42,877 nucleotides of DNA from Gemmatimonadota bacterium (GTDB lineage Bacteria; Gemmatimonadota; Gemmatimonadetes; Palauibacterales; Palauibacteraceae). A program made the translations under genes and the position numbers. Numbering within the stretch: position 1 is the stretch's first letter; each line of letters opens with the position of its first letter. The notes beneath the pieces were generated by a model. The model was not told the DNA's origin. It was given only the letters and a program-made list of their open reading frames with translations, and made no database searches. This document shows positions 18,510 through 34,753 of the stretch, piece by piece. The DNA is taken from contig JBHIAV010000025.1 in the NCBI GenBank assembly GCA_046758745.1, positions 1-42,877 on the forward strand, given 5' to 3'.

Positions 18510-20168
18510 ATGAAGGCAGCAGAGCTCTTCGTCCGATGTCTCGAGAACGAAGGGGTGCGCCGCATCTACGGCATCCCCGGTGAAGAGAACCTGGACGTGA
18601 TGGACGCCCTCCTCGACAGCTCCATCCACTTTGTCACCACGCGTCACGAGCAGGGCGCCGCCTTCATGGCGGACGTGCACGGGCGCCTCACGGGAGAGGC
18701 CGGGGTGTGCCTCGCCACGCTCGGCCCGGGTGCGACGAACCTCGTCACCGGCGTGGCGGACGCGAACATGGACCGCGCCCCGGTGGTGGCGATCGCCGGT
18801 CAGGCCGCCACCACGCGCATGCACAAGGAGAGCCATCAGTACCTCGACCTGGTGAGCCTCTTCCGGCCGATCTCGAAGTACAGCACACAGATCCTCGAGC
18901 CAGAGATCGTTTCGGAGGTCGTGCGGAAGGCGTTCAAGGTCGCTCAGGCCGAGAAGCCGGGGTGCAGCTTCATCGACTTTCCTGAGAACATCGCGGAGAT
19001 GCCGGTCGACGGAGGGCCACTCAGAGTGCAGACGGCGATGGCGCCCGACCCGCCCGAGGCCAAGGTGAAGCAGGCGGCCCGGATCATCTCAGACGCCCGC
19101 TACCCGATCATCATGGCTGGGAACGGCGTGATCCGGGCCCGCGCATCCGATTCGCTGGTCGGGTTCGCCGAGGCGCTCGACATCCCGGTCGCGACAACCT
19201 TCATGGCCAAGGGAGCGATCCCCTTCTCGCACGCCCTTTCCCTCGGCACCGTGGGCTTGCAGGCACACGACTTCGTCTCCTGCGGCTTCGACCGGGCCGA
19301 CGTCATCATCTGCGTCGGATACGACATGGTGGAGTATCACCCGGTTCTGTGGCACTCGGAGAGAGACAAGAAGATCGTGCACATCGACTCAAGCCCTGCC
19401 GAGGTCGATCAGAGCTATATCGTCGAGGTCGGCGTGGTGGGGAGCATCGGGGTTTCGCTGGACGCCATCGCCGCACAGGCGACGCCGCGGGAGGGCGCTG
19501 TGGCGGGCGGCCTGCGGGTGGGGACCGTGGCGGGCGGCCTGCGCGAGGTCATCGTGGCGGAGATGGCCGAGCACGCCGAGGATGCCGGCTTTCCGGTCAA
19601 GCCGCAGAAGATTCTCTGGGACCTCCGCCGGGCCCTTGGGCCGGAGGACATCGTGATCAGCGATGTCGGGGCGCACAAGTTGTGGATCGCTCGGATGTAC
19701 CAGGCCGAGCGGCCGAACACCTGCATCATCTCCAACGGCTTCGCCTCGATGGGGATCGCCCTCCCGGGCGCGATCGCGGCCCGCTTGGCGTTCCCGGACC
19801 GGGCGGCGGTGGCGGTGACGGGCGACGCCGGCTTTCTGATGAACTCGCAGGAGATCGAAACGGCGGTGCGACTGGGTGTGCCGATCGTGGTGCTGATCTG
19901 GAGCGACTCGAAGTACGGCCTCATCCAGTGGAAGCAGGAGGTCCAGTTCGGGCGCGAGAGCCACGTCAGCTTCACGAACCCGGATTTCGTGAAATTCGCC
20001 GAGAGCTTCGGCGCGAACGGCTACCGGGTAGAGAGTGCGGGTGAGCTGGCTCCCGTGCTGGAGGAGGCGCTGGCGGACGGAGGCGTGTCGATCATCGATT
20101 GCCCGGTGGACTACGCCGAGAACGTGAAGCTGACAGACAGGCTCGGACAGCTGATATGTGCGATCTGA
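18510..20168 (+). CDS. ThDP-dependent enzyme, acetolactate-synthase-like; closest in style to 2-oxoglutarate decarboxylase (OgdA type)
   Basis: CLENEGV..IYGIPGEENL, RHEQGAAFMADV.GRLTG, RMHKESHQYLDLV, NTCIISNGFASMG, and a ThDP motif GDAGFLMNSQE; no ilvH/ilvC nearby. Confidence 0.85.
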   Translation: MKAAELFVRCLENEGVRRIYGIPGEENLDVMDALLDSSIHFVTTRHEQGAAFMADVHGRLTGEAGVCLATLGPGATNLVTGVADANMDRAPVVAIAGQAATTRMHKESHQYLDLVSLFRPISKYSTQILEPEIVSEVVRKAFKVAQAEKPGCSFIDFPENIAEMPVDGGPLRVQTAMAPDPPEAKVKQAARIISDARYPIIMAGNGVIRARASDSLVGFAEALDIPVATTFMAKGAIPFSHALSLGTVGLQAHDFVSCGFDRADVIICVGYDMVEYHPVLWHSERDKKIVHIDSSPAEVDQSYIVEVGVVGSIGVSLDAIAAQATPREGAVAGGLRVGTVAGGLREVIVAEMAEHAEDAGFPVKPQKILWDLRRALGPEDIVISDVGAHKLWIARMYQAERPNTCIISNGFASMGIALPGAIAARLAFPDRAAVAVTGDAGFLMNSQEIETAVRLGVPIVVLIWSDSKYGLIQWKQEVQFGRESHVSFTNPDFVKFAESFGANGYRVESAGELAPVLEEALADGGVSIIDCPVDYAENVKLTDRLGQLICAI

Positions 20169-20343
20169 CCTTCGGCCGACGAGATGGTCTGCGCGGCCCA
20201 CCGGCACTTCACGGGGGACCGCACCCGGCCGGAGGAAGGCCCGCCGCCGCGCACTCCCGCGGCTTCAGGTCCGCCGGTGTCGGCGGGACTCACCGCCGAA
20301 GTCCGAACGACGTCTGTCTCCGGGCGCCCCGAGAAGGCCGGCC

Positions 20344-21798
20344 ATGAAAGCGATGACGAACGAACGCTATCCGCTGATGATCCCCGGCGCCGGGCCGGGA
20401 CCTCACCCACTTGAGGTCAATGCGCCGTTCGACGGGGCGCCGATCGCGACGGTGGAGACGGCCGACCTCGCGGCGGTGGACCGGGCGCTCGGCACCGCCG
20501 AGGCGCTCTACCGAGACCGCGACGCGTGGCTGAAGCCGCACGAGCGGATCGCCATCCTGGAGACGACCTCGAGGATCATGGAGGAGCGCGCGGAGGAGCT
20601 CGCCGCCGGAGCTGCGCAGGAGGGCGGGAAGCCGCTCCTCGACTCCCGGGTCGAGGTCGGACGAGCCATCGAGGGGGTCAAGCTGTGCATCGACGCCCTC
20701 CGCACGGGGGCGGGGACGGAGATCCCGATGGGCATGAACCCGGCGTCCATCGGGCGGCTGGCCTTCACCCGCAGGGAGCCGATCGGCGTGATCTTGGCCT
20801 TCAGCGCCTTCAATCACCCGCTGAACCTCATCGTGCACCAGGTGGGGCCCGCCGTAGCGGCCGGTTGCCCGGTGATCGTGAAGCCGGCCGAGGCCACGCC
20901 CCTCTCCTGCTTCCGTTTCGTGGAGATCCTTCGCGAGGCCGGTCTCCCCGAGGAGTGGTGTCAGGCGTTTGCGGTAGCCGACCTCGAGGTGGCCGGCGCG
21001 CTGGTCACCGACCCGCGCGTCGCCTTCTTCACCTTCATCGGGAGCGCCAGGGTCGGGTGGATGCTGCGCTCGCGCCTCGCCCCCGGAACGCGCTGCGCGC
21101 TGGAGCACGGCGGGGCGGCGCCGGTGATCGTGGCGGCGGACGCCGACGTGGAGGACGCCTTGCCCCGCCTCGCCAAGGGAGGGCTCTACCACGCCGGCCA
21201 GGTGTGCGTGTCGGTGCAGCGGGTGTTCGCCCAGGAGTCGATCGCGCGGGATGTCGCACAGCGGCTCGCCGGGCTCGCCGCGGCGATGAGCGTAGGAGAT
21301 CCGACGACAGAGGAGACCGAGGTCGGGCCGCTCATCCGACCCAGCGAGGTGGAGCGGGTCGGTGAGTGGGTGGAGGAGGCTGCATCGGGCGGAGGGGAGC
21401 TGCTCACCGGAGGCGAGCGCATCTCCGACTCCTGCTATCGACCCACTGTGCTATACGATCCGCCGGCCGACGCCAGGGTGAGCACGCTCGAGATCTTCGG
21501 CCCGGTGATCTGCGTCTACCCGTACCGGGAGCTCGACGAGGCCGTCGAGCGGGCCAACGCCCTCCCCTACGCCTTCCAGGCCGCGGTCTTCACCCGGGAC
21601 ATCGATGCGGCGGTTCGCGCCGCCGAGCGACTCGACGCGGCCGCCGTCATCATCAACGATCACACCGCATTCCGCGTCGACTGGATGCCGTTCGCCGGGC
21701 TCAAGCAGTCGGGGCTGGGCGTGGGCGGGATTCCGTACACGCTGCGGGACATGCAGGTCGAGAAGCTTTGGGTGCTCCGGTCGAGGGCGCTCGGATGA
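20344..21798 (+). CDS. NAD(P)-dependent aldehyde dehydrogenase (resembles the uncharacterised RL0313-type subfamily)
   Basis: EPIGV..SAFNHPLN, KPA, FTFIGSA, LEHGG, catalytic GQVCVS, EIFGPV, MPFAGLKQSG; ATG at 20344 or 20353. Confidence 0.92.
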   Translation: MKAMTNERYPLMIPGAGPGPHPLEVNAPFDGAPIATVETADLAAVDRALGTAEALYRDRDAWLKPHERIAILETTSRIMEERAEELAAGAAQEGGKPLLDSRVEVGRAIEGVKLCIDALRTGAGTEIPMGMNPASIGRLAFTRREPIGVILAFSAFNHPLNLIVHQVGPAVAAGCPVIVKPAEATPLSCFRFVEILREAGLPEEWCQAFAVADLEVAGALVTDPRVAFFTFIGSARVGWMLRSRLAPGTRCALEHGGAAPVIVAADADVEDALPRLAKGGLYHAGQVCVSVQRVFAQESIARDVAQRLAGLAAAMSVGDPTTEETEVGPLIRPSEVERVGEWVEEAASGGGELLTGGERISDSCYRPTVLYDPPADARVSTLEIFGPVICVYPYRELDEAVERANALPYAFQAAVFTRDIDAAVRAAERLDAAAVIINDHTAFRVDWMPFAGLKQSGLGVGGIPYTLRDMQVEKLWVLRSRALG

Positions 21799-21839
21799 GA
21801 GAGTCCGGACGGCCGCTCTCCTCCTGATCGGGGGCGGGA

Positions 21840-23240
21840 TTGGCGCCTACCGCGAAAGGCGAACGGCACAGCGTGGCCGACCAGCTCGTGTGGGAGGAGC
21901 TCCCCAGGCTGGCCGAGCCCGTCTACCGGATCGACGAGCGGCCGCCGACGCGATGGGAGACCCTGCTGTACGGCTGGCAACACACGCTGGTCGACATCTC
22001 GCCGTTCGTCCTCCCCCTCGCGGTGGCGGCAGCGATTGGAATGTCCCCGTCCGAGGAGGCCCGCTTCATCAACTTCTGCCTCTTCGCGATGGGCATCGCG
22101 ACCCTTCTCCAGACGACGATCGGGAACCGTCTCCCGATCATTCAGGGACCGTCGGCCACGCTCACCGGGACACTGGCGCCCATCGCCTCGCAGCTCGGTC
22201 CGGCGGCGATGTGGGGCGGGGCGTTCCTCGGCGGCCTCTTCGAGATGGTGGTGGGGGCCTCCCGCATCCTCGCCGCTCTCCGAAAACTCTTCCCCCCGGC
22301 CGTGGCCGGGGTCGTCGTGCTCACCATCGCCGTGGCGCTCGGGAGCTTCGCCATCCGCCTCGCGGTCGGCGACGGCAGCGCCCTCAACTTCGTTCTTGCG
22401 GCGGCCGTCATCGGGCTTATCGCCCTTCTCCAGGTGCGCCTGCGGAGCCTCGCCGGCGGCCTCCTCTCCCGGGCTGCCATCTTCATCTCCATCTGGGCCG
22501 TCGGGCTCGGGATCGGCGGGCCGTTGGGACGGGTGGACTGGTCGCTCGTAGCGGAGAAGGCGTGGCTCGCCTTTCCCCATCTCTTCCCGTACGGCGGACC
22601 GGGCTTCGGGTGGGAGTTCCCCGCCGCCGCGGTGCTCGGCGTTCTGGCCGGCTACTTCGGCTCCATGGTCGAGTCTCTCGGGGACTACGCGGCGACCTGC
22701 GCGGTGGCGGACGAGCGGTACACGGTGCGCCACATGAACCGAGGCATCTTCGCCGAGGGGCTCGGAAGCGCCTTGGCCACCGTCTTCGGCGGCCTCCCCT
22801 GCACGAGCTACACGCAGAACATCGGGATCATCGCGGCGACCCGGGTGGCAAGCCGACTCGTCGTCCAGGTCGCCGGAGCCATCCTGCTCCTGTACGGCCT
22901 GAGCCCGAAGTTCGGCGCCCTTCTGGTGGCGATGCCGCGCGCGGTGCTCGGCGGGGTGTTCGTGGTCGTGTGCGGCATGATCGCGGTGTCGGGGATCCGG
23001 TTGCTCGGTACGGCGGCCGACACGGCTGCCAACCACCTCGTGGCGGGAGTGACGCTCATCCTGTCGATCGGCCTTCCCGTCTACGTCCGCTTCGGACTCG
23101 GGGAGGCGTGGCTCACCGAAATACCCACGCTGGGCCGGCTCGTCCTGACCAACCCGGTCGTGCTGGCCGTGCTGCTGGGAGTCGGCCTGCAACTCACTCT
23201 GAACCTCATCCTCGAAGAGAGCGCGACCGAGCGATCATAG
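21840..23240 (+). CDS. NCS2/NAT nucleobase permease (xanthine/uracil family)
   Basis: GWQH, TLLQT..G.RLPIIQGPS, ESLGD, NAT signature QNIGIIAATR; many TM segments; start uncertain. Confidence 0.92.
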   Translation: MAPTAKGERHSVADQLVWEELPRLAEPVYRIDERPPTRWETLLYGWQHTLVDISPFVLPLAVAAAIGMSPSEEARFINFCLFAMGIATLLQTTIGNRLPIIQGPSATLTGTLAPIASQLGPAAMWGGAFLGGLFEMVVGASRILAALRKLFPPAVAGVVVLTIAVALGSFAIRLAVGDGSALNFVLAAAVIGLIALLQVRLRSLAGGLLSRAAIFISIWAVGLGIGGPLGRVDWSLVAEKAWLAFPHLFPYGGPGFGWEFPAAAVLGVLAGYFGSMVESLGDYAATCAVADERYTVRHMNRGIFAEGLGSALATVFGGLPCTSYTQNIGIIAATRVASRLVVQVAGAILLLYGLSPKFGALLVAMPRAVLGGVFVVVCGMIAVSGIRLLGTAADTAANHLVAGVTLILSIGLPVYVRFGLGEAWLTEIPTLGRLVLTNPVVLAVLLGVGLQLTLNLILEESATERS

Positions 23241-23251
23241 AGCGCGAGCCT

Positions 23252-23417
23252 CGCCGCCTTGGCGGGCTCATCAAGCGTCGTGCCGGGCTAACGACGTTCC
23301 TTCGGGGACTCCTCACGCGCCTCGGCGGGCACACCACGCTCTCGCGGCCTCACCACGTACCTTGGCAGGCCCATCCGCACCTGGGCGGGCCGATCCCCGG
23401 GCGCCGCAGGCTCACTC
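23252..23417. repeat. Degenerate ~21-bp tandem repeat, about 8 units
   Basis: Units such as CGCCGCCTTGGCGGGCTCATC, ACGCGCCTCGGCGGGCACACC, ACGTACCTTGGCAGGCCCATC and CGCACCTGGGCGGGCCGATC fill the spacer between the convergent NCS2 and amidase genes. Confidence 0.6.
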
Positions 23418-24839
23418 CGGGTCTTCGAGCGACGGCACCCGAGGGAGTCCGATCGGAAGAGCCTCCTCGATGAGCGCGGCGAGGGCGAGGACGGACTCCT
23501 CGCCGAGGGGCGGCCCCACGATCTGGAGACCCACCGGCAAGCCGGCCGAATCCACGCCGCACGGGACCGAGGCGACAGGAAGGCCAGCCAGGCTCAGCAC
23601 GAAGGTCGGGGCGATCCACTCCACGTAGCTCTCCATCCGCCGGCCGGCGATCGTCTCCGGATAGTTCTGCTCGACCGGAAACGGCGAGATGGCCATGCAG
23701 GGCGTGAGCACCGCATCGAACTCTTGGAAGAGATCGCGGAACATCCCCCATATGCGGCCCCGGGCCCGCTCGGCGCTGCCGAGCTGCTCGGCCGTCACCT
23801 CGAGCCCGGCCAGCACGTTGGCTCGAACGTTCACGCCGAGCCGGTCGAGGCGGTCGAGACGGGCGTGCTGGTGGATGACCATCCACACCCCGCGCAGGGC
23901 GAGGAACGCCTCGCGCCCGAACGAGAGGTCGAGCTCGATCTCCTCCACCCGAGCGCCGTTGTTCTCGCACTCCACCGCCGCATCGCGGCACACGAGCTGG
24001 ATCGCCGGGTCCACGCCTATTCCGGCCACATCGGGAGCATAGGCCAGCCGCTTGCCGCTCCATGTGGCGCTTCGCACTGCACCGAGGAAGTCGCGGCCCT
24101 CGACCGGCTGGCAGAGCGGCGAAACGGGGCTCGGTCCGCTGATCGCCTGCAGCATCAGCGCCGCGTCCTCGGCCGTTCTCGCCAGCGGCCCCGTGACCTC
24201 CAGGTCGTCCCACACCCAGGCCGTCGGATGGGTGGGGACGAGTCCGGGGGCCGGGCGCAGCCCGACGACCCCGCAGAAGGAGGCGGGGATGCGAAGGGAG
24301 CCGCCGAGATCGGTCCCCTCGGCGAGCGCGATCATGCCGGCCGCGAGCGCTGCCGCTCCGCCCCCGCTCGAACCGCCGGCGCTGAGCGCCGGATCCCACG
24401 GGTTGCGGGTCGGACCGAACACCTCATTCCACGTGTGACCACCGGCCGCGAACTCCGGGGTGTTCGTCTTCCCGAGCACGATCGCGCCGGCCGCGCGCAG
24501 CCGGCGCACGACCAGGGCGTCCTCCTCGGGGACGTAGTCGGCGTACAGAGGGGAGCCGTAGGTGGTGCGCAGGCCGGCCACCGGGGTGACATCCTTGATC
24601 CCGACCGGCAGCCCGCACAGGAGGCCCGCCCCTTCCCCTGCGCACAGCCGCCGTTCCACCTCGCGTGCTTCCTGGATCGCGCGATCGGAGACTGTCGGAA
24701 CCGCGTTCAGGATGCCGTCGTAACGGGCGATTCGATCGAGGCACGCCTCGACGAGCTCCACCGGCGAGAGCGCGCGGCGGGCGATTCGGTCCCGCAGCTC
24801 CGTGGCCGGGAGCAGGGCGACGTCGGACGAGGCGCTCAC
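23412..24839 (-). CDS. Amidase signature family enzyme
   Basis: GLPVGIKD (Lys), GKTNTPEF, GGSSGG (cis-Ser), GTDLGGSLRIPA (nucleophile Ser), GLPVGLQ. Confidence 0.95.
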   Translation of the reverse strand: MSASSDVALLPATELRDRIARRALSPVELVEACLDRIARYDGILNAVPTVSDRAIQEAREVERRLCAGEGAGLLCGLPVGIKDVTPVAGLRTTYGSPLYADYVPEEDALVVRRLRAAGAIVLGKTNTPEFAAGGHTWNEVFGPTRNPWDPALSAGGSSGGGAAALAAGMIALAEGTDLGGSLRIPASFCGVVGLRPAPGLVPTHPTAWVWDDLEVTGPLARTAEDAALMLQAISGPSPVSPLCQPVEGRDFLGAVRSATWSGKRLAYAPDVAGIGVDPAIQLVCRDAAVECENNGARVEEIELDLSFGREAFLALRGVWMVIHQHARLDRLDRLGVNVRANVLAGLEVTAEQLGSAERARGRIWGMFRDLFQEFDAVLTPCMAISPFPVEQNYPETIAGRRMESYVEWIAPTFVLSLAGLPVASVPCGVDSAGLPVGLQIVGPPLGEESVLALAALIEEALPIGLPRVPSLEDPE

Positions 24840-24883
24840 TCGATGAGCTCGACGTCGGCGGACCGCGTCGCTCCCACGCTACG

Positions 24884-25678
24884 TCAGACCTCCAAGAAGG
24901 CGACGACCCGTGCGAAGGCTGCCTCTCCGCCTTTGAACTTCCACGGGAAGCAGCCGATCGTCAGCCGCCGGTTCTGCAGCTCCGTCGCCGCGATATCGCC
25001 CCCCAAGTTCTCTATGTGCATGCAGTTGTGAGGAAAGAGCGCGTTATGGGTCAGCTGGTAATGGTCCTCCGGGAAGATCTCGGCCACCTTCTCCGGCCCT
25101 CCGAACTTCTTCTCCGCGACGCGGCGCACTTTCTCGCACTGCCCGTGGGTTCCCTTTCCGAGGAAGCGACCGATCGGGAGGTTCATCGGGTGGTCGGTGG
25201 AGATCGCGTCCACCCCCCAGATCTTGATCTCCTTCTCAAGCAGCCAGGCCACCATGTCGGGATGCGCGCCCGGATGGAGGTGAATGTAGCGCTCCTCGTT
25301 CGGTTCCTCACCGAACTGTCCGTAGCGGTGCCAGCCTGTGTGCAGGATGACGATGTCGCCCTTCCTCACCTCGACCCTGCTCTCGATCATCTCGGGCGTG
25401 TACGCGCCGAGGTCCCCGAGCTCCTCCGCGAGGTTCACGATCACCCCCGGACCGTACAGCCACTCCAGCGGGATCTCGTCGATCGTCATCCCGCCGGTGA
25501 CGAAGTGGCGCGGCGCGTCGAGGTGCGTGCCCATATGGTTCGAGGTCTGGATATACTGGGCGTTCACGCCGTGCTCGGCCTTCCGCTTGATGTACTTGAC
25601 CTCGAACGGCGGATAGTACGGCCAGAAAGGCGCGTCCTGATTCAGCGGCTGGGACAGATCGTACAGCTTCATCTTCAT
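24884..25678 (-). CDS. Cyclase-family metal-dependent hydrolase (kynurenine formamidase / isatin hydrolase fold)
   Basis: YDLSQPL, HMGTHLDAPRH (HxGTHxDxPxH), GVDAISTD, HIENLGG, C-terminal GGEAAFARVVA. Confidence 0.93.
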   Translation of the reverse strand: MKMKLYDLSQPLNQDAPFWPYYPPFEVKYIKRKAEHGVNAQYIQTSNHMGTHLDAPRHFVTGGMTIDEIPLEWLYGPGVIVNLAEELGDLGAYTPEMIESRVEVRKGDIVILHTGWHRYGQFGEEPNEERYIHLHPGAHPDMVAWLLEKEIKIWGVDAISTDHPMNLPIGRFLGKGTHGQCEKVRRVAEKKFGGPEKVAEIFPEDHYQLTHNALFPHNCMHIENLGGDIAATELQNRRLTIGCFPWKFKGGEAAFARVVAFLEV

Positions 25679-25856
25679 CTCCCGTGTGTGGTCGGGCCGG
25701 GGCCGTCTCGGCGGTCGGGCCGTGGCCGTCCGAGCGGTCAGGCCGGGGCCGTCCGGTGGTCGGGATGTGGCCGGCCCGCGGCCGGAGGCGGGGCCGTCGC
25801 CCGCGAGGACGGTGAGCGGCTCGCCCCTCGGCTCATGGGCCCGGGCGCCGCACGGC

Positions 25857-27371
25857 TCAAGCGAAGAGCCGCTTCACCTCCGGCTTGGTCACCTTCCCCA
25901 TCGGGTTCCGCGGAAGGTCGGCCAGGACGAGGAGCCGGCTCGGGACCTTGTAGACGGCCAGCCGCATCTTCGCCCACGCGCGGAGCTCCGGCAGCTCCAG
26001 CGTGCCCCCCGGGCGAAGGACCGCGGCAACGCACACCCGCTCCCCCCACTCCGGGTCGGACACCCCGACCACGGCGCAATCGGCGATCTCCGGGTGCGTC
26101 CGAAGGACGCTTTCCACCTCGAGCGCCGAGACCTTGTAGCCGCCGCTCTTGATGATGTCCACCGAGGTGCGGCCGAGGATGCGGTAGTAACCGCCTTCGA
26201 CGACAGCCTCATCGCCCGTACGGAACCAGCCATCGTGGAAGGACTCACGCGTCGCTTCGGGCCGGCCCCAGTACTCGCGAAACACCATAGGGCCGCGGAC
26301 TTCGATGGTGCCGGGCACTCCCTCCGCGTGGACCGGTCGGCCGGCGTCGTCTACCAGCCGAACCTCCACGCCGGGAAGCGGCGTTCCCACGAAGCCCGGG
26401 CGGCGCTCGCCGCGCAGCGGATTGGAGAGGGCCATCCCGATCTCCGTCATGCCGTACCGCTCGAGCAGGGCGTGTCCGCTGATCGCGCGCCAACGCTCGA
26501 ACACATCCGCCGGGAGGGCCGCCGAGCCGGAGACCATGAGACGAACGCCGCGACACGCCTCGGACCGCTTCCTCCTCTCCTCCGCGGGCGCCGCCTCCCA
26601 TGCCGCGATCAGTCGCAGATAGATCGTGGGCACGGCCATGAAGAGCGTGATGCCCCCGCGGCCGAGCCGCTCCCACACTCGCTCTGCATCGAACTCCGCC
26701 AACATCTCGCACGTCGCGCCCGCCCACAAGGCGCACAGCAGCGCGTTCACGATCCCGTGCGTGTGGTGCAGCGGCAGCACGTGAAGGATGCGGTCCTCCG
26801 GGCTCCACTCCCATGCCTCGACGAGGGTTCGGATCTGGGCGGCGAGGCCGGCGTGCGTGGTGACGACTCCCTTCGGGAGGCTGGTCGTGCCGCTCGTGTA
26901 CAGGATCATCGCGCAGCGCTCGGTTCGTACGCAGGGGAGCACCGCCGCTTCGGTGCCGAGAAGCTGCTCCGTTCGGAGGCACCGGAGGTCGTCCCTTCCG
27001 CAGAGGGGCGTCAGCTCCCTCTCGAAGAGGGGATGAACGATCAGGGCTTCGGCCCCGGCGTCACGGAGGACGTGCTCGATCTCGGGAAGCGGGTGGGAGA
27101 CGCAGAGAGGTACCGCGATCCCTCCCGCCCGCCAGATTCCCCACTGGACAGCTGCGTACTCGAAGCCGGAAGGCACCAGCAAGGCGACCCGCGCGCCGGC
27201 CAGGTCGGAGCGAGGGCCGAGCGCTTGGGAGCCGGGGCGCTCCCGGCCGAGAAGGCCGGAGGCGACGCGAGCCGACGCCGCCAGGAGCTCGTCGTAGGTG
27301 TGCTCTCCTTGCCCGTCCGCGATCGCGATCCGGCCGGCGTGGGGAAGGGCCTGTTCCACGATCGGTAGCAT
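25857..27371 (-). CDS. Acyl-CoA synthetase, malonyl/methylmalonyl-CoA synthetase-like (MatB/ACSF3 type)
   Basis: YTSGTTSLPKG, LPLHHTHG, LLERYGMTEIGMALSNPL.GERRPG.VG.PLPGV, GRTSVDIIKSGGYKVSALE, PRNPMGKV. Confidence 0.88.
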   Translation of the reverse strand: MLPIVEQALPHAGRIAIADGQGEHTYDELLAASARVASGLLGRERPGSQALGPRSDLAGARVALLVPSGFEYAAVQWGIWRAGGIAVPLCVSHPLPEIEHVLRDAGAEALIVHPLFERELTPLCGRDDLRCLRTEQLLGTEAAVLPCVRTERCAMILYTSGTTSLPKGVVTTHAGLAAQIRTLVEAWEWSPEDRILHVLPLHHTHGIVNALLCALWAGATCEMLAEFDAERVWERLGRGGITLFMAVPTIYLRLIAAWEAAPAEERRKRSEACRGVRLMVSGSAALPADVFERWRAISGHALLERYGMTEIGMALSNPLRGERRPGFVGTPLPGVEVRLVDDAGRPVHAEGVPGTIEVRGPMVFREYWGRPEATRESFHDGWFRTGDEAVVEGGYYRILGRTSVDIIKSGGYKVSALEVESVLRTHPEIADCAVVGVSDPEWGERVCVAAVLRPGGTLELPELRAWAKMRLAVYKVPSRLLVLADLPRNPMGKVTKPEVKRLFA

Positions 27372-27391
27372 ACTGACCAGTATTACCGTGA

Positions 27392-28927
27392 CTAATCTAC
27401 AATTACTTCAAGCGATTTATCGCCACGCATGAGGAGCCAATACAGGACGAAGGAGACGATCGCGGCGGAGAACCACGCTCCGCTGAACAGGAACTCGAGG
27501 CTCGGGTGGAGCTTCCCCGCCAGGGCGATGGCGATGCCCGCTCCGAGCGCGACGAGCGCCCGCCGGTTGAAACCGGCGCGATACGCGTACGGTCCGTCCT
27601 CGGTGTACAGGCCCCGCAGGTCGAGGCGCGCGCGACGCAGCACCCAGTAGTCGCACACGATCACTCCCCCTATCGCCCCTAGGAGCCCGGAGTAGCTGAT
27701 CAACCACGTCTGGTACTCATCCAGGAGTCGCCACGGGAAGATGAAGATCCCGATGAGGCCCGCGATGAACCCGCCGAGGCGGAAGCCCACCCGCCGCGGG
27801 AAGAGGTTGGCGAAGCTGTTCGCCGGCGCGACCACGTTCGCGGCGATGTTGGTGCTCAGGGTGGCGAGGGCGAGCACCAGCAGGGCGAGCAGACCGAGGA
27901 GCGGGCTGTCGTATTCCGCCGTGAGGCGAGCGAGCAGGTCGATCGGATTCCAGATCGCCTCCCCGTACAGGATGACGGTGGCGCTGGTGACCGCCACCCC
28001 CACGAACGCGAAGAGGGGCATGGCGGTGAGAAGGCCGACCGCCTGGCCCACGAACTGGTCCGTCTGGCTCTTCGCGTAGCGTGTGAAGTCCGGGATGTTG
28101 AGGGAGAGGGTGGCCCAGTAGCCGACCATGGCGGTAAGCCATGGGATGAAGAGCGTGAGCAGGAAGCCGCTCCCGCGTTCCCGCGCCGCGGCGGTTCCCA
28201 GGGCAGCGGAACCCTCCAGGATCCTCCCTATGCCGCCCACCCGAAGCGTCGCCCAGGCGAGGAGCACCATCCCCACCACGATGAGGAAGGGGGCCGCGAG
28301 CGTCTCCAGCCACTTGATGCTCTCCGTTCCGGCCCACACGAAGTAGATGTTGACGAGCCAGAAGAGCAGGAAGCTCACGTAGTGCGACAGCCCGTACCCC
28401 ATGAAACTCCAGTCGCCGCCGAGCCGCGCCCAGTTCTCCCACAGGATTCCGATGAGCGCGTTGATCGCCAGTCCGCCGATCCACGTCTGGATCCCGAACC
28501 AGCCGCACGCCACTACCGATCGGAGGAGCGAGGGGACGTGGGCGCCGGCGTGGCCAAAGGAGGCGCGCACGAAGACCGGGAAAGGAATGCCGTAGCGCGT
28601 GCCCGCGTGGGCATTGAGCACCAGCGGAAGGAGGACGATGGCGTTGCCGAGGAGGATGGTCAGAAGGCTCTGCCACCAGTTCATCCCGGCGTCGATCATA
28701 CTCGCGGCGAGCATGTAGGTCGGAATGCAGACGCTCATCCCGACCCACAGAGATGCGAGGTGCCACCGATTCCACGTCCGGTCGGCGATGGTGGTCGGAG
28801 CGATGTCGGCATTCACCAGCGGACCGTCGGGGAGCCCTTCGGAAAGCTCCACCAGGGCGGAGAGTTCCCGAAACTCTGCGCCTGGGGCGGTCCCTGCGGC
28901 GTGTGCCATCTCCGGGTGCGGGATCAT
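27392..28927 (-). CDS. NCS1 nucleobase:cation symporter (uracil/allantoin/hydantoin permease family)
   Basis: LWVGMSVCIPTY, GTRYGIPFPV, ACGWFGIQTWIGG, WATLSLNIPDFTRY, STNIAANVV. Confidence 0.95.
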   Translation of the reverse strand: MIPHPEMAHAAGTAPGAEFRELSALVELSEGLPDGPLVNADIAPTTIADRTWNRWHLASLWVGMSVCIPTYMLAASMIDAGMNWWQSLLTILLGNAIVLLPLVLNAHAGTRYGIPFPVFVRASFGHAGAHVPSLLRSVVACGWFGIQTWIGGLAINALIGILWENWARLGGDWSFMGYGLSHYVSFLLFWLVNIYFVWAGTESIKWLETLAAPFLIVVGMVLLAWATLRVGGIGRILEGSAALGTAAARERGSGFLLTLFIPWLTAMVGYWATLSLNIPDFTRYAKSQTDQFVGQAVGLLTAMPLFAFVGVAVTSATVILYGEAIWNPIDLLARLTAEYDSPLLGLLALLVLALATLSTNIAANVVAPANSFANLFPRRVGFRLGGFIAGLIGIFIFPWRLLDEYQTWLISYSGLLGAIGGVIVCDYWVLRRARLDLRGLYTEDGPYAYRAGFNRRALVALGAGIAIALAGKLHPSLEFLFSGAWFSAAIVSFVLYWLLMRGDKSLEVIVD

Positions 28928-28937
28928 GGAGGTGTGG

Positions 28938-29819
28938 CTACGGCGCGCTCCGCGCCCGGGCGAACGCCTCGGTCAGCGCACGGCGGGTGAGTACCTCGGC
29001 GAGCCGACGGCGGTAGGCCGGCGACGCGTGGATGTCCTCCAGCGGCTCGATGTCGCACGAGGCGGCGAGGCGGGCCGCGTCGGCGATCCTCTCCTCCGTC
29101 GGAAGCTCCCCTGCCAGCGATGCGGCCGCGCTCGACGCCGCGCCCGGCCGGTCGCCGACGCTCAGGAGGGCGAGGCGCGCCTCGCGGCAGCGGCCTTCCT
29201 CATCGACGCTCACCACGGCGGCGACCCCGACGAGCGCGTAGTCGCCGTGCCGACGCGCGAGCTCGAGGAAGGCGGTCCCGGTCCGGGCGGGCAGGCGCGG
29301 GAGGACGATCTCTGCCAGAAGCTCGTCCTCCGCGAGCGCCGTGCTGAAGGGCCCGAGGAAGAAGTCGGACGCGTCCACCCACCGCGCACCTTCGGGCCCC
29401 TCCAGGCGGAAGCGTGCCTTGAGCGCGAGCATCACGGCGGGGAGCTCCGCGGCCGGATCGGCGTGCGCCAGACTTCCGCCCACCGTGCCACGGTTCCGTA
29501 TCTGGGGGTGAGCGACGTACGGCATCGCCTCTGCGACGAGCGGCGCCCGCTCGCGCACCAGCGCACTTCGCTCCACGGCACGCTGTCGGACCATCGCGCC
29601 GATGCACAGCCCGCCCGCGTCCGCCGCCTCCAACCGCTCGAGCTCCTCCAAGCCGTTCAGATCGACGAGAATCGTCGGCTGGGCGAGGCGGAAGTTCATG
29701 GTGGGGATGAGGCTCTGTCCCCCGGCGAGCGGTTTCGCCTCGTAGCCGTGCCGGGCGAGGAGCGATAGCGCTTCTTCCAGAGTTCGCGGCGCAAAGTACT
29801 CGAACGGAGCCGGCTTCAC
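28938..29819 (-). CDS. Molybdenum hydroxylase FAD-binding (medium, CoxM/XdhB-like) subunit
   Basis: MKPAPFEY.AP, LAGGQSL, HPQIRNRGTVGGS, RRHGDYA; GTG start at 29819 overlapping the stop of the large subunit. Confidence 0.94.
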   Translation of the reverse strand: MKPAPFEYFAPRTLEEALSLLARHGYEAKPLAGGQSLIPTMNFRLAQPTILVDLNGLEELERLEAADAGGLCIGAMVRQRAVERSALVRERAPLVAEAMPYVAHPQIRNRGTVGGSLAHADPAAELPAVMLALKARFRLEGPEGARWVDASDFFLGPFSTALAEDELLAEIVLPRLPARTGTAFLELARRHGDYALVGVAAVVSVDEEGRCREARLALLSVGDRPGAASSAAASLAGELPTEERIADAARLAASCDIEPLEDIHASPAYRRRLAEVLTRRALTEAFARARSAP

Positions 29820-32188
29820 CGGAGACCTCCGCCCGCGCGATCGGAGTCCTCCGTCGCCGCCTCGCACATCAGCTCGAAGAGCCGGTTCGGGCTCAGGGGG
29901 ATCTCCAAGATCTCGAGTCCCGTCCCGGCCAGGGCGTCCTCCACGGCCTGCGCGAACAGTGCCCCGACGGGGATCGCGCCGGCCTCCCCCGCTCCCTTCA
30001 CACCGAGCGGGTTGAGGGGCGAAGGGGTCTCCACGTGGGCCGACTCGATGCGGGGTACGTCCGTGGCAGTAGGGAGGAGATAGTCCATCAAGGAGGCGTT
30101 GAGGAGCTGTCCGGTCTCGTCGTACGCCAGCTGTTCGTAGAAGGCGTTCCCGATTCCGTGCGCCACCCCCCCATGGATCTGGCCCTCCAGGATGAGCGGG
30201 TTGATCACCCTCCCGCAGTCGTGCACGACGACGTAGCGAAGGAACTTCACCATCGCCGTCCGGGGATCCACCTCCAGGATGGCGGCGTGCACGCCGCTCG
30301 CCGTGCTCCCCCGATCAGGACCGAAGTAGGCGGTCGCCTCGAGTCCCGGCTCGGTGCCTGGCTCCACCGCGCCGCGCAGGGGATTCGCGCCCACGGCGAG
30401 CTCGCCGAGGCTCACAAAGCGATCCGGCACCCCCTTCACGACAGCCTTCCCCTCGCGCAGCTGGATGTCGTCTTCCGCCGCCTCAAGCAGCTCGCTCGCC
30501 AGCTTCAGGACCTTGCGGCGAACGGCCTGCGCCGCAGCGTGACAGGCGTTCCCCGCCACCACCGCGCCCCGGCTCGCGAACGTTCCCGTGCCCCAGTGGA
30601 ACTCCCCCGTGTCGCCCGTCACCACCCGGACCGAGCGAACATCCACGCCGAGCTGCTCGGCCACGATCTGCGCGAAGCTGGTGAAGTGCCCCTGCCCCTG
30701 AGTGCCGACCCCCGTGGCCACGTTCACCCGGCCGCTCGGCTCCACGGAGACGCGCGCTCCTTCGTACGGCCCGATGCCGGTCCCCTCGACGTAGGAGACC
30801 ACGCCGATCCCCACCCTGCGTCCCTCGGCCCGCAGGCGCGGCTGCTCCTCGGCGACGAACCGGGAGTAGCCGATCATCTCCACCGCACGATTCAACGCCG
30901 GCTCGTAGTCGCCACTGTCGTAGACGAGGGGAGTGCTGTCCTGGTACAGGATCCCGTGCTCGTGGGGAAAGGCGTCGGGCGGGAGGTAGTTGCGCCGCCG
31001 GATCTCGACGCGGTCGATGCCGAGCTCGCGCGCCGCCATGTCGAGGAGCCGCTCCATCACGAACACGCCCTGCTGTCGGCCCGCCCCACGCACCGGGGTC
31101 ACGATGGTCTTGTTCGTGAAGGCGACCCGGAACTCGCTGTAGTAATTCGGGACATTGTACGGACCGAGGAGGGTGCACTGGCTGTTGATGGGGATGGTGA
31201 GCCCATATGGGTCGTACGCGCCCGTGTCGTGCAGGAAGCTGTCGCGCACCCCGAGGATGCGCCCATCGCTGTCGAGGGCGATCTCGGCCTCGTGGATCTG
31301 CCCTCGTTCCTGCGTGGTGGCGAAGAAGTTCTCCTGCCGGTCCTCGATCCACTTCACCGGAATGCCGAGGCGCATGGAGATCCACGGCACGAGGAGCTCT
31401 TCCGGGTAGAACATCATGATCTTCGGGCCGAACCCACCCCCGACGAAGGGGGCGATGACCCGCACCTGCGATTCGGCGAGGCCCAGCATCCCGGCGAGCC
31501 CATTACGGATCGGGATCGGGGCCTGCGTGGAGTCCCACACCGTGAGCTGCGCCGCCCTCGGCTCCCAGTACGCCACGACTCCCCGGTTCTCGATCGCGGC
31601 AGACGCTCCCCGGTCGTAGGCGAATCGCCGCGCGATACGTAGGGCGGCGCCCGTTCGGGCCACCTCGTAGCTCCCTTTCTCCTGCACCGCGTGGGCCGCG
31701 AGGTTGGAGTCGAGGTCCTCATGGACGCGCGGGGCGGCCGGATCGAGGGCACCCGCGAGCTCCACCACCGCGTCGAGCGGCTCGATCTCGACGTGGATGT
31801 CGGCGGCCGCATCCTCCGCGAGGTATCGGCTCTCGGCCACGACGACGGCGAGAGGCTCGCCGGCGTGCCGCACCTTCCCCCGCGCCAGCGGGAGCTGCGT
31901 GCGAGTGTGGAAGACCAGCCGCTCGATGGGCGGCGGTTCGACGAGGAGCGGGCCCGGTCGGCAGAAGCTCCCGAGGTCGCCGGCCGTGTACACGCCGGCT
32001 ACGCCACGTCGGGACCGCGCGACCGACACATCGATGCTCCGGATGCGGCCGTGCGCGTAGTCGCTCCGGCGGAAAGCGACGTGGAGCATCCCCGGGAGAC
32101 GCACATCGTCCACGAAGAGCGCTTCTCCTGTGAGGAGGCGCGGATCCTCGTTGCGGGTGATCCGCTGGCCGAAGACCCGCGTGGACAC
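29816..32188 (-). CDS. Molybdenum hydroxylase molybdopterin-binding (large, CoxL/XdhA-like) subunit
   Basis: R.EDPRLLTG, VGGGFGPK, PVRGAGR, GQGH.T.FAQ, GTFASR, GQIHGG, KGAGE; GTG start at 32188. Confidence 0.95.
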   Translation of the reverse strand: MSTRVFGQRITRNEDPRLLTGEALFVDDVRLPGMLHVAFRRSDYAHGRIRSIDVSVARSRRGVAGVYTAGDLGSFCRPGPLLVEPPPIERLVFHTRTQLPLARGKVRHAGEPLAVVVAESRYLAEDAAADIHVEIEPLDAVVELAGALDPAAPRVHEDLDSNLAAHAVQEKGSYEVARTGAALRIARRFAYDRGASAAIENRGVVAYWEPRAAQLTVWDSTQAPIPIRNGLAGMLGLAESQVRVIAPFVGGGFGPKIMMFYPEELLVPWISMRLGIPVKWIEDRQENFFATTQERGQIHEAEIALDSDGRILGVRDSFLHDTGAYDPYGLTIPINSQCTLLGPYNVPNYYSEFRVAFTNKTIVTPVRGAGRQQGVFVMERLLDMAARELGIDRVEIRRRNYLPPDAFPHEHGILYQDSTPLVYDSGDYEPALNRAVEMIGYSRFVAEEQPRLRAEGRRVGIGVVSYVEGTGIGPYEGARVSVEPSGRVNVATGVGTQGQGHFTSFAQIVAEQLGVDVRSVRVVTGDTGEFHWGTGTFASRGAVVAGNACHAAAQAVRRKVLKLASELLEAAEDDIQLREGKAVVKGVPDRFVSLGELAVGANPLRGAVEPGTEPGLEATAYFGPDRGSTASGVHAAILEVDPRTAMVKFLRYVVVHDCGRVINPLILEGQIHGGVAHGIGNAFYEQLAYDETGQLLNASLMDYLLPTATDVPRIESAHVETPSPLNPLGVKGAGEAGAIPVGALFAQAVEDALAGTGLEILEIPLSPNRLFELMCEAATEDSDRAGGGLR

Positions 32189-32190
32189 CG

Positions 32191-32811
32191 CTATGCCCCC
32201 CGGGCCTCCGAGTTCACCCTCGCAGCCCTCTGCCTGCCGCTCTCGTCCCGGGGGCCCGAATGGGGCGCGCCGGCAGCGGCCCCGGATGCGCTGCCGCCTG
32301 CCATGCGGGTCGCCGCGAGCTTCACGGCGTCCACGATGTTCTGATATCCGGTGCAGCGACACAGATGACCCGAGAGCCCCTCACGGATCTTCTCCTCCGT
32401 GGGATTCGGCTCCTCCCTCAGGAACGGGACGAGGCTCATGAGGATTCCGGGCGTACAGAAGCCGCACTGGAGAGCATGGGCCTCGCGGAAGGCGATCTGA
32501 AGAGGGTGGAGATGGCGGGTTTCCGGATCGACCGGTCCGCCGACGTTCCTGACCGGCGGATTCGCTGCCAACCCCTCCACGGTGAGGATGTCCCGCGAGT
32601 CCACCTGCACGGCGAAGATGAGACAGGAACGGACCGCCTCCCCATCGAGGAGCACCGTGCAGGCGCCGCACACCCCGTGCTCACACCCGACGTGGGTGCC
32701 CGTGAGCCCGAGCTCCTGTCGCAGGAAGTCACACAGCAGGAGGCGCGGCTCGACGGAGCGCTCGTGGCTCTCGCCGTTGACGTGGACCCGAACCGTGCAG
32801 TGTGCGTTCAC
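32191..32811 (-). CDS. Molybdenum hydroxylase [2Fe-2S] (small, CoxS-like) subunit
   Basis: GTHVGCEHGVCGAC..SC, QCGFCTPG, LCRCTGY; GTG start at 32811. Confidence 0.95.
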   Translation of the reverse strand: MNAHCTVRVHVNGESHERSVEPRLLLCDFLRQELGLTGTHVGCEHGVCGACTVLLDGEAVRSCLIFAVQVDSRDILTVEGLAANPPVRNVGGPVDPETRHLHPLQIAFREAHALQCGFCTPGILMSLVPFLREEPNPTEEKIREGLSGHLCRCTGYQNIVDAVKLAATRMAGGSASGAAAGAPHSGPRDESGRQRAARVNSEARGA

Positions 32812-33220: not shown

Positions 33221-34753
33221 ATGCCCGAAGTCGCCATCGCCACCACCTCCCCCCTCGCCGCCGATGCCGGAGCGCGCATCGCGGAGCGGGGCGGCAACGC
33301 GGTCGACGCCGCCATCGCGGCCGCGCTCGTCTCCGTCGTCACGGAGCCGGGGGTCTGCTCACTGGGCGCCGGCGGCTTCCTCACCATCTGGCCGTCCGTC
33401 GGGGAGCCCCTGACGGTGGACGGGTACGTGGAGATGCCGGGCCGCGGCCTGCCGCGGGAGCGCTTCGGCGGCGGTCGGCGCGACATCTACCTGGAGTACG
33501 GCGGCGGCGTGTCGATGACCGTGGGCCACGGCTCCGTGGCCACCCCCGGCGTCGTCGCGGCGTTCGGGCTGGCCTCGGAGCGCTTCGGGAGCTTGCCGTG
33601 GCGCGAGCTGGTCGAGCCCGCGTACGAGAGCGCACGTGACGGCTTTCCCCTCCCGCAGGCCTCGTACAACTACCTCATCTATGCGCACGATCTCGTATTC
33701 GGATGGAACCCGCAGAGCCGCCGTGCCCTGCACGATGAATCCGGACGGCTCCGCGAGGCCGGCGAGACAATCCACATCGAGGGCCTGGCCGAGAGCCTGT
33801 GGGCCATCGCGGAGCGGGGTCCGGACGAACTCTACCGGGGACGGCTCGCCCGACTGATCGCCGAGGACGTGACGGGAAACGGCGGGATTCTCACCTCGGA
33901 AGATCTCGCCGCGTATCGGGCTGTCGAGCGACCCGCCCTCACGGTGGAGCTGGACGGCTGGCGGGTGGCGACCAACCCGCCGCCGGCCGTCGGAGGATGC
34001 ACGCTCGCGGCGATGCTGCTCCTCATGGGAGGGAGGCCCGCGAGCGGGTGGACGGCCGCGGAGCTGAGCCACCTCGTGGCGGTGCAGCGCGCCGTTCTCG
34101 CCTACCGTCGCCGCCACCTCGACGTGAGCGAGAACCTACCGCGGGACGCCCATCGCCTCCTCGATCTGGCGGCCGGCGGAAGTCTCGAGCGGTTCGCCGC
34201 CTCCCCCTCGACCGTGCACACCTCGGCAGTCGACTCCTCCGGGCTGGCCTGCGCGGTCACCGTGTCGGCAGGCTACGGCTCCGGCGTGATGCCCCCGGGC
34301 ACGGGGATCTGGATGAACAACTGCCTCGGAGAGGTGGAACTCAACCGGCGTGGTTACCACGCCCTGGAGCCCGGCACCCGGCTCCCCTCCAACATGGCAC
34401 CCACCGTGGCGCGGCGCGGTACCGGAGCCGTCCTCGCGATCGGGTCACCGGGAGCGGACCGGATCACCACCGCCATCCTGCAGGTGATGCTCAATTTCAC
34501 CCGCCTCGGCATGAGCCTGGAGGAGGCCGTCTCGCACCCGCGCGTGCACGTGGAAGCGCCGGACGCGGGAGGACGCGTCGCCTACGAGGCGGGGCTTTCG
34601 ATCGAGGAGGGAGAGCTGCCCCTCCGACGGTACGAGGAACCGTCGATGTTCTTCGGTGGGGTGGGCGCCGCGCTGTGGGACCCGGCGCGCGGCTTCGAGC
34701 TGGCCGCCGACCCCCGCCGCGTGGGAGGGACCGCCGTCGGCGGAAAGCCGTAG
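33221..34753 (+). CDS. Gamma-glutamyltransferase-family Ntn hydrolase (no signal peptide)
   Basis: GGNAVDAAIAA, LGAGGF, VATPG, putative autoprocessing Thr in S/TVHTSAVD, GTGIWMNN, GSPGADRI. Confidence 0.9.
   Translation: MPEVAIATTSPLAADAGARIAERGGNAVDAAIAAALVSVVTEPGVCSLGAGGFLTIWPSVGEPLTVDGYVEMPGRGLPRERFGGGRRDIYLEYGGGVSMTVGHGSVATPGVVAAFGLASERFGSLPWRELVEPAYESARDGFPLPQASYNYLIYAHDLVFGWNPQSRRALHDESGRLREAGETIHIEGLAESLWAIAERGPDELYRGRLARLIAEDVTGNGGILTSEDLAAYRAVERPALTVELDGWRVATNPPPAVGGCTLAAMLLLMGGRPASGWTAAELSHLVAVQRAVLAYRRRHLDVSENLPRDAHRLLDLAAGGSLERFAASPSTVHTSAVDSSGLACAVTVSAGYGSGVMPPGTGIWMNNCLGEVELNRRGYHALEPGTRLPSNMAPTVARRGTGAVLAIGSPGADRITTAILQVMLNFTRLGMSLEEAVSHPRVHVEAPDAGGRVAYEAGLSIEEGELPLRRYEEPSMFFGGVGAALWDPARGFELAADPRRVGGTAVGGKP

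Follow-up and report, generated by a model that had tools for sequence, protein, structure and literature searches.

Which compound is broken down by a seven-gene operon of a Gemmatimonadota bacterium, and which of its enzymes would open the ring? The operon occupies positions 23412-32811 of contig JBHIAV010000025.1 (assembly GCA_046758745.1), whose analysed stretch of 42,877 nucleotides (~69 % G+C) is called the window below. An original prediction, made from sequence reading, had proposed an oxidative pyrimidine pathway lacking barbiturase. Comparative genomics supported this interpretation through the conservation of the gene set, the grouping of the hydroxylase large subunit, the MatB-like ligase and the barbiturase-linked relatives of the large subunit. 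The operon is probably a variant of the oxidative (barbiturate) degradation of uracil or thymine, in which a ring opener from another enzyme family would be used.

The enzyme activities that make up oxidative pyrimidine degradation have been on record since the 1950s, and uracil/thymine dehydrogenase is classified as EC 1.17.99.4. According to the accessible text of PMC3758960, the route of Rhodococcus erythropolis JCM 3132 consists of this dehydrogenase, barbiturase (EC 3.5.2.1) and ureidomalonase, and ends in urea and malonate. Barbiturase homologues were encountered there in 3 % of 6423 genomes, and it is because of this rarity that the route itself is regarded as rare. In the literature covered here, which largely excludes subscription journals, no genes were assigned to uracil/thymine dehydrogenase or ureidomalonase and no cyclase-type barbiturase was described.

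Open reading frames together with Pfam and NCBIfam calls placed seven co-oriented genes on the minus strand (Table 1). They encode, in this order, the small (S), large (L) and medium (M) subunits of a molybdenum (Mo) hydroxylase, an NCS1 permease, an AMP-forming ligase, a cyclase-family metallohydrolase and an amidase-signature enzyme, exactly as had been claimed. Spacing was also as announced (-4 to 44 bp save one gap of about 180 bp): 2 bp between S and L, with a GTG at 32188 taken as L start; -4 bp between L and M, where the GTG start of M overlaps the L stop codon as GTGA; then 10, 20, 178 and 44 bp between M, permease, ligase, cyclase and amidase. Gene starts were inferred from sequence. 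The general NCS1 model was the only NCBIfam model passed by the operon proteins; none of the named equivalogs was reached, among them those for xanthine dehydrogenase, CO dehydrogenase and glyceraldehyde dehydrogenase, for allantoin permease and malonyl-CoA synthase, and for arylformamidase, AtzE and allophanate hydrolase.

One genome per species was scanned with the cyclase. Out of 561 related stretches obtained, the 80 best ones served as loci and were searched with the window proteins by tblastn; contig ends cut many of them, so that 35 displayed full flanks (at least 20 kb). By record title, these best 80 loci belonged to Gemmatimonadota (57), Acidobacteriota (11), KSB1 (4), Bacteroidota (4), Calditrichota (1) and Myxococcota (1), two being unclassified, and the same gene order was seen in related loci of at least five phyla. 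The gene set was conserved together in other genomes, a point on which the original prediction could have failed: S was found in 54 of the 80 loci (32 of the 35 with full flanks), L in 59 (33), M in 65 (33) and the amidase in 60 (33). L lay upstream of the cyclase and on the same strand in 59 out of 59 loci holding it, and the amidase downstream and on the same strand in 59 out of 60. This grouping is far beyond chance. The ligase (39 of 80; 24 of 35) and the NCS1 permease (29 of 80; 15 of 35) are variable parts, and the core consists of S/L/M, cyclase and amidase, while importer and CoA-activating enzyme vary among loci. Median identities to the window proteins were 81 % for the cyclase, 71 % for L, 70 % for NCS1, 64 % for S, 62 % for the amidase, 58 % for M and 56 % for the ligase; with the highest value, the cyclase is the most constrained part of the operon.

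The best 120 cyclase homologues listed were 77-87 % identical and came from metagenome-assembled genomes of Gemmatimonadota, Acidobacteriota/Thermoanaerobaculia, Calditrichota, KSB1, Longimicrobium and one Syntrophomonadaceae; between phyla, orthologues shared 79-87 % identity. Within the phylum of the window, a cyclase orthologue (E <= 1e-80) was present in 47 out of 401 sampled genomes, namely in 23 of the 30 genomes of the window's own family against 18 of the 166 of the largest family. Such a patchy distribution, combined with ~80 % identity between phyla, suggests a mobile accessory module.

Some loci displayed further genes. In five Longimicrobium-type loci (L043, L044, L048, L059 and L070), S/L/M and cyclase were followed by an unknown protein of ~490 aa, with a weak DUF1444 match alone, and then by a periplasmic binding protein; an amidase stood downstream of this pair in L043 and none was within reach in the four others. 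Palauibacter-type loci added a beta-lactamase-family hydrolase between cyclase and amidase, a YgeY-like M20 hydrolase and an SSF symporter.

The putative ring opener belongs to family PF04199 (137.2 bits, cut-off 23.1), which includes a lactam-opening enzyme and whose members act on varied substrates. Its HMGTHLDAPRH sequence, an instance of the HxGTHxDxPxH metal motif, aligned with those of solved formamidases and of the cyclase-phosphotriesterase C-PTE. The predicted fold matched isatin hydrolases, kynurenine formamidases and the Ruegeria cyclase-phosphotriesterase (PMC12135135), and the top Foldseek hits were all cyclase-family proteins. The model is of moderate quality (mean pLDDT 73.6, with low-confidence stretches at residues 21-59 and 162-177) and was used for the fold alone and not for the active site. 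Fold and metal motif are thus shared with isatin hydrolase, which opens a cyclic amide, and with kynurenine formamidase, whereas the gene context of the window cyclase is entirely different and its sequence similarity to all solved cyclase-family members is remote (E 1e-8 to 1e-14). It scored 66 bits with the kynurenine formamidase/arylformamidase model TIGR03035, whose cut-off is 223.05. On the basis of gene context, the cyclase may work like barbiturase while belonging to another, non-homologous family; that this holds and that S/L/M is uracil/thymine dehydrogenase, taken together, is a proposition for which we see even chances.

More distant cyclase homologues were encountered on plasmids. 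Those of haloarchaeal plasmids were 36-41 % identical; on one of them, from Halorussus caseinilyticus, the cyclase adjoins S, L, M, CoxG, XdhC, a CaiB-type CoA-transferase and an SLC23/NCS2 permease, its L forming a distant, long-branched lineage in the tree described below. Plasmid pmega_2 of Rhodococcus ruber carries a cyclase with 37 % identity amid two Rieske oxygenase/reductase pairs, two CN-hydrolases, a cupin and a DUF1116 gene; this is a different heterocycle cluster, possibly an N-demethylating one.

The claim that an AtzD-fold gene is missing held: no PF09663 (AtzD/barbiturase-family) match was found among the seven operon proteins or in the window genome, which is 87.4 % complete, so that an absence there means 'not found'. 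The two families were distributed in a complementary way: PF09663 was found in one of the 401 sampled genomes of the phylum against 47 for the cyclase orthologue, and no genome harbored both. The lone match (G351:C3:5876-6906, L081-L085) was split over several frames within ~1 kb and may represent a broken gene.

The large subunit provided the link to barbiturase. All Pfam domains of S, L and M scored above cut-off, giving the three-subunit CoxSLM-type architecture of the xanthine-dehydrogenase family. S fell below the cut-off of every named NCBIfam equivalog, and L did not reach those of the aerobic CO dehydrogenase models (TIGR02416, 527.9 bits for a cut-off of 991.15; NF040766, 917.7 for 950). 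L reads VRGAGR where form I CoxL displays a Cys-containing loop. A firm grouping of L with a characterised non-pyrimidine hydroxylase, which would have spoken against the pathway, did not emerge: the best solved relatives share subunit architecture and domain set with the window enzyme and scored about equally, CoxL (8uem) with 513 bits, quinoline 2-oxidoreductase Qor (1t3q) with 499 and 6-hydroxypseudooxynicotine dehydrogenase Kdh (7dqx) with 472, none being a clear orthologue.

L was then compared with a plasmid database of 72,556 records, a number of them being chromosomes in reality. All 240 matches at E <= 1e-100 were less than 60 % identical, and the top two came from Nonomuraea gerenzanensis (NZ_LT559118.1, 49.9 %) and Embleya sp. 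NBC_00888 (NZ_CP108785.1, 48.7 %). The Embleya record contains one full-length PF09663 match (E 2e-149), 7.6 kb past L. Its protein scored 594.6 bits with the solved 'Barbiturase' 5hwe and 324.1 bits with the best cyanuric acid hydrolase. As far as the accessible text of Peat et al. 2013 (PMC3758960) indicates, five specificity positions carry R/T/R/G/G in cyanuric acid hydrolases, as against N/H/K/V/(S or A) in members of the barbiturase group; the Embleya protein has N, H, K, V and A there, as matched by pattern and not by residue count to the printed alignments. Among the 72,556 records, 131 matched this protein, and only Embleya itself and Nonomuraea (77 %) exceeded 60 % identity. The other 129 AtzD-family records remained below this value, the best listed ones reaching at most 47 % and being named ring-opening or cyanuric acid amidohydrolases. 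The sole two barbiturase-type records are thus the two with the best matches to the window L, which fits a cyclase replacing barbiturase.

Gene content around these two L genes resembled that of the window in several respects. The Embleya locus consists of AllG, AllF (FdrA) and AllH on one strand and, on the other, of PucR, an NCS2 permease, M, S, L, CoxG and a CN-hydrolase, followed further along by barbiturase, carbamate kinase (above the NF009007 cut-off), a family III CoA-transferase and an NmrA-like protein. Nonomuraea displays the same core (AllG-AllF-AllH / PucR-NCS2-NCS2-M-S-L), with a CoA-transferase ~16 kb and barbiturase ~30 kb from L. Subunits S, L and M of these loci are 48-57 % identical to those of the window, and a nucleobase permease is present in both systems; six of the 80 cyclase-type loci also have relatives of the actinobacterial AllF and AllG beside them. 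Between the Embleya CoA-transferase and those of cyclase-type loci, identity amounts to 41-44 %, and the Embleya AllG shares 56 % with the AllG adjoining such loci. The parts that differ are the ring opener (barbiturase in Embleya, cyclase in the window), the amide hydrolase (CN-hydrolase instead of amidase-signature enzyme) and the importer: the Embleya NCS2 permease is nearest to RutG (368 bits), followed by the uracil permease UraA (287) and xanthine permease (169), whereas the window operon encodes NCS1. AllH and the PucR regulator are found only on the actinobacterial side of this comparison, as is carbamate kinase in Embleya.

A quick IQ-TREE phylogeny was computed from 37 L sequences: 25 linked to the cyclase (the window L and 24 of the 56 other usable ones, hand-picked for spread, one picked locus having no usable L), five paralogues from the window genome and seven from plasmid records. 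The cyclase-linked sequences formed one clade and three actinobacterial ones another, both with a support of 100 in the Shimodaira-Hasegawa-like approximate likelihood ratio test; these two clades and the Serratia L met in an unresolved fork (88), with Variovorax next outside and the window-genome paralogues placed farther off. Forcing the cyclase-linked and actinobacterial sequences into one clade, a group named after the tree had been seen, cost 4.5 log-likelihood units and was not rejected (p-AU 0.389, approximately unbiased test). This lends weak support to such a joint clade; the tree is compatible with orthology of the two sets without proving it. L homologues from Variovorax, Serratia, Thermomicrobium, Halobaculum and Aminobacter were also considered as substrate clues and were discarded, their contexts being unrelated.

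Other hydroxylases of this type were met in passing. The window genome (3.1 Mb) harbors five further S/L/M-type loci, on contigs C39, C35, C6, C16 and C45, with L 28-42 % identical to the window L. In the vicinity of the one on C45 (5072-14843) are a YgeY-like M20 hydrolase and a D-hydantoinase-like gene (271 bits), an arrangement that may represent a separate ureide or purine module. On the Thermomicrobium roseum megaplasmid, M-S-L (L 43 %) stands beside an ABC transporter and 5-oxoprolinase-type PxpA/carboxyltransferase genes, another Mo hydroxylase paired with a lactam-opening system. Plasmid pRZP2 of Rhodococcus sp. ZPP carries PucR, SLC23/NCS2, M, S, L, CoxG, hydantoinase B, NmrA, amidase and CoA-transferase; its L, missing from the gene table of the record, matched the window L in two pieces (42 %). 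This locus looks analogous to the window operon, with a predicted ATP-dependent hydantoinase/oxoprolinase-type ring opener.

The far end of the pathway was indicated by the ligase. Its ERYGMTE motif, already noted in the prediction, was read again (Table 1), and the proposed MatB identity was backed by structure-linked searches: among solved relatives, MatB proteins and MatB chimeras take the first five places (4fuq, 4fut and 3nyq at 268-277 bits, E 1e-78 to 1e-81), compared with 203 bits for oxalate-CoA ligase. Similarity to the MatB proteins of R. palustris (4fut) and S. coelicolor (3nyq) is near full-length and includes ERYGMTE and HTHG; the differences are that the window ligase lies below the malonyl-CoA synthase cut-off (NF005702) and that a CoA-transferase stands in for it in some related loci. 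In the 35 full-flank loci, the slot beside the cyclase held the ligase in 24, a family III CoA-transferase in five, neither in six and both in none. That two unrelated enzymes share one slot suggests a pathway ending in a carboxylic acid that is made into a CoA ester. The nearest NCBIfam models of the CoA-transferase are those for the dicarboxylates glutarate, oxalate and mesaconate, all under cut-off, and the activated end product is probably a dicarboxylate.

The amidase belongs to PF01425 (338.9 bits, cut-off 27) and stayed below the cut-offs for ureide amidases (TIGR02713, 155.9 for 511; TIGR02715, 235.7 for 425.75; NF006631, 243.6 for 461). The permease exceeded the 353.1-bit cut-off of the NCS1 model TIGR00800 and fell below those of the allantoin permease models. 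Importers vary, with NCS1 in some loci, an SSF symporter nearby in others and NCS2 alongside in five of the 80.

Gene families, gene order, conservation and the tie of the hydroxylase clade to barbiturase-containing loci are observed; the substrates and reactions of the window operon are all inferred, and it would act as follows. NCS1 would import uracil or thymine, and the three-subunit Mo/FeS/FAD hydroxylase would oxidise C6 to give barbiturate or 5-methylbarbiturate. The cyclase-family metallohydrolase would then open the ring to ureidomalonate, a task performed in actinobacteria by the unrelated 'Toblerone-fold' barbiturase. From this product the amidase-signature enzyme would free malonate or methylmalonate, either directly, together with urea, or from malonamate after removal of the carbamoyl group, and the MatB-like ligase would finally form malonyl- or methylmalonyl-CoA. 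As far as the R. erythropolis route is described in the accessible text cited above, the proposed reactions are the same (oxidation to barbiturate, hydrolysis to ureidomalonate and release of malonate). The window differs by a cyclase-family metallohydrolase in place of an AtzD/barbiturase-fold gene and by encoding importer and CoA-activating step within the operon itself. The proposed chemistry is that of the known route, and the cyclase would stand in for barbiturase without belonging to its family.

Also in favor of the pyrimidine reading, the window genome gave no RutA match at all, and its best D-hydantoinase/dihydropyrimidinase match was the 271-bit gene of contig C45, under the cut-off of 393. 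As to the ureido group, neither urease alpha nor AllH was found in this 87 %-complete genome, and no urea carboxylase exceeded its cut-off. A carbamate-kinase-like gene is located on contig C4. The six loci with AllF/AllG homologues are all from Gemmatimonadota. In the window genome itself, a trio of 4'-phosphopantetheinyl-transferase-domain gene, FdrA and AllG lies on another contig (G000:C21, 7985-12528, L088), and the same trio was seen in L040 (11931-15635) and L038; in it, the transferase-domain gene occupies the place expected for AllH. By analogy with the E. coli oxamic transcarbamylase AllFGH (accessible text of PMC11326118), AllF and AllG near these loci suggest phosphorolysis of an N-acylurea, the substrate here being potentially ureidomalonate instead of oxalurate; the window itself contains no AllF, AllG or AllH. 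FdrA/AllG had been considered as strong evidence of an N-acylurea intermediate and was downgraded, in view of six loci out of 80 and of the location of the trio on another contig.

Several results weigh against the pyrimidine reading. The absence of urease alpha, urea carboxylase and AllH leaves the fate of the ureido group unexplained. The PF09663 search found nothing in 14 control genomes either, and the sole positive backing its absences is the Embleya match, whose gene bears the NCBIfam name 'cyanuric acid amidohydrolase'. The malonyl-CoA synthase model NF005702 gave the ligase 364.7 bits for a cut-off of 558, and the amidase has no close relative among named ureide hydrolases. The L tree does not resolve the cyclase-linked and actinobacterial clades as sisters, and their fork is shared by the Serratia L, whose context is unrelated.

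The remaining adverse points favor the same architecture acting on another N-heterocycle, such as a hydantoin- or imidazolone-type ureide, a purine-like base or some other cyclic amide. This compound would undergo hydroxylation, hydrolytic ring opening and deamidation, yielding a small dicarboxylate for activation with CoA. The nearest named model of NCS1 is allantoin permease, and the NCS2 protein next to the operon is nearer xanthine permease (271 bits) than RutG (109) or UraA (96). At 40-45 % identity, L homologues serve unrelated pathways; those at or below 45 % from Variovorax, Aminobacter, Halobaculum and Thermomicrobium lie in quite different contexts, and 49 % identity to a barbiturase-linked L is therefore no guarantee of the same substrate. 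AllFGH-type enzymes act on oxalurate, a ureide derived from a five-membered ring (PMC11326118, accessible text). The CoA-transferase also resembles oxalate transferases, and the Rhodococcus plasmid pRZP2 joins L with hydantoinase B, amidase and CoA-transferase. Against this stand the ligase, nearer MatB than oxalate-CoA ligase, and the closest L relatives, whose loci also contain a barbiturase-signature gene together with a permease of RutG/UraA type. Moreover, we know of no other common heterocycle that would give a malonate-type acid by one hydroxylation and two hydrolyses. Another heterocycle appears less probable than a pyrimidine.

Pyrimidine oxidation with exchanged hydrolases would differ in that the amidase, or an enzyme encoded elsewhere, opens barbiturate and the cyclase cleaves a linear ureide or amide. 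The cyclase family indeed holds hydrolases of linear amides (e.g. kynurenine formamidase, for a linear formamide), esterases and a phosphotriesterase, the amidase-signature family includes a cyclic-dimer hydrolase, and about 12 loci, mostly from Longimicrobium and Acidobacteriota, combined S/L/M and cyclase with no amidase within reach. Among the partners of S/L/M, however, the cyclase shows the greatest constancy and conservation, ahead of the amidase in median identity, and Embleya fills the amide-hydrolase slot with a CN-hydrolase in addition to possessing barbiturase, leaving the cyclase as the family without counterpart there. We consider such an exchange improbable. A chance neighbourhood of a 'form II CO dehydrogenase', an arylformamidase, an amidase and a fatty-acid ligase without common pathway agrees with database names ('kynurenine formamidase', 'arylformamidase') and with an L score near the cut-off of the CO dehydrogenase model NF040766, but is hardly credible given gene order and strand kept across phyla and the large deficits of the cyclase (66 for 223 bits) and L (528 for 991) with the arylformamidase and other CO dehydrogenase models.

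The surroundings of the operon appeared unconnected with it for the most part. A convergent three-gene unit on the plus strand (18510-23240) adjoins it and encodes an acetolactate-synthase-like thiamine pyrophosphate (TPP) enzyme (NF006187, 787 bits, above cut-off), a 546-aa aldehyde dehydrogenase and the NCS2 transporter, which was the only gene of this unit recurring near related loci (five of 80). The TPP enzyme and the aldehyde dehydrogenase were rejected as parts of the system, being near one and none of the 80 related loci, respectively, as was the divergent GGT-like gene (33221-34753), found near only one. Rfam detected no family anywhere in the window. The 178-bp spacer displayed no promoter-like or terminator-like site; in the search covering spacer and upstream region, no promoter-like site was detected and two terminator-like sites did not exceed chance level.

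Table 1. Features of the seven-gene operon in the window
Feature	Position	Strand	Evidence
S, small (2x[2Fe-2S]) subunit of Mo hydroxylase	32191..32811	-	Fer2_2 E 2.9e-29 and Fer2 (Pfam); start at 32811 inferred
L, large molybdopterin subunit, candidate catalytic subunit of uracil/thymine dehydrogenase	29816..32188	-	hammerhead (Ald_Xan_dh_C), MoCoBD_1, MoCoBD_2 (Pfam)
M, medium flavin adenine dinucleotide (FAD) subunit	28938..29819	-	FAD_binding_5 E 8e-50, CO_deh_flav_C (Pfam)
NCS1 nucleobase:cation symporter, uptake	27392..28927	-	PF02133 E 6.6e-112; TIGR00800 360 bits
MatB-like AMP-forming acyl-CoA ligase, candidate malonate/methylmalonate-CoA ligase	25857..27371	-	AMP-binding and AMP-binding_C; LLERYGMTEIG
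G+C-rich spacer of 178 bp between ligase and cyclase	25679..25856	-	sequence read
Cyclase-family (PF04199) metallohydrolase, candidate barbiturate ring-opening hydrolase	24884..25678	-	PF04199 E 6.1e-40
Amidase-signature hydrolase, candidate ureidomalonase or malonamidase	23412..24839	-	PF01425 E 6.9e-101

If both assignments are correct, S/L/M as uracil/thymine dehydrogenase and the cyclase as barbiturase, the oxidative pathway would no longer count as rare and confined to a few actinobacteria. Rather, a mobile module would have spread through Gemmatimonadota, Acidobacteriota, KSB1 and Bacteroidota as well as further phyla, mostly uncultured, and its ring openers, its amide hydrolases and its CoA-activating enzymes would be interchangeable. 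This reading would also supply testable candidate genes for uracil/thymine dehydrogenase, and a second, unrelated enzyme family opening the barbiturate ring. The annotation of pyrimidine recycling would then change in many uncultured marine, soil and sponge-associated bacteria, in which such genes are presently labelled 'CO dehydrogenase' and 'kynurenine formamidase'.

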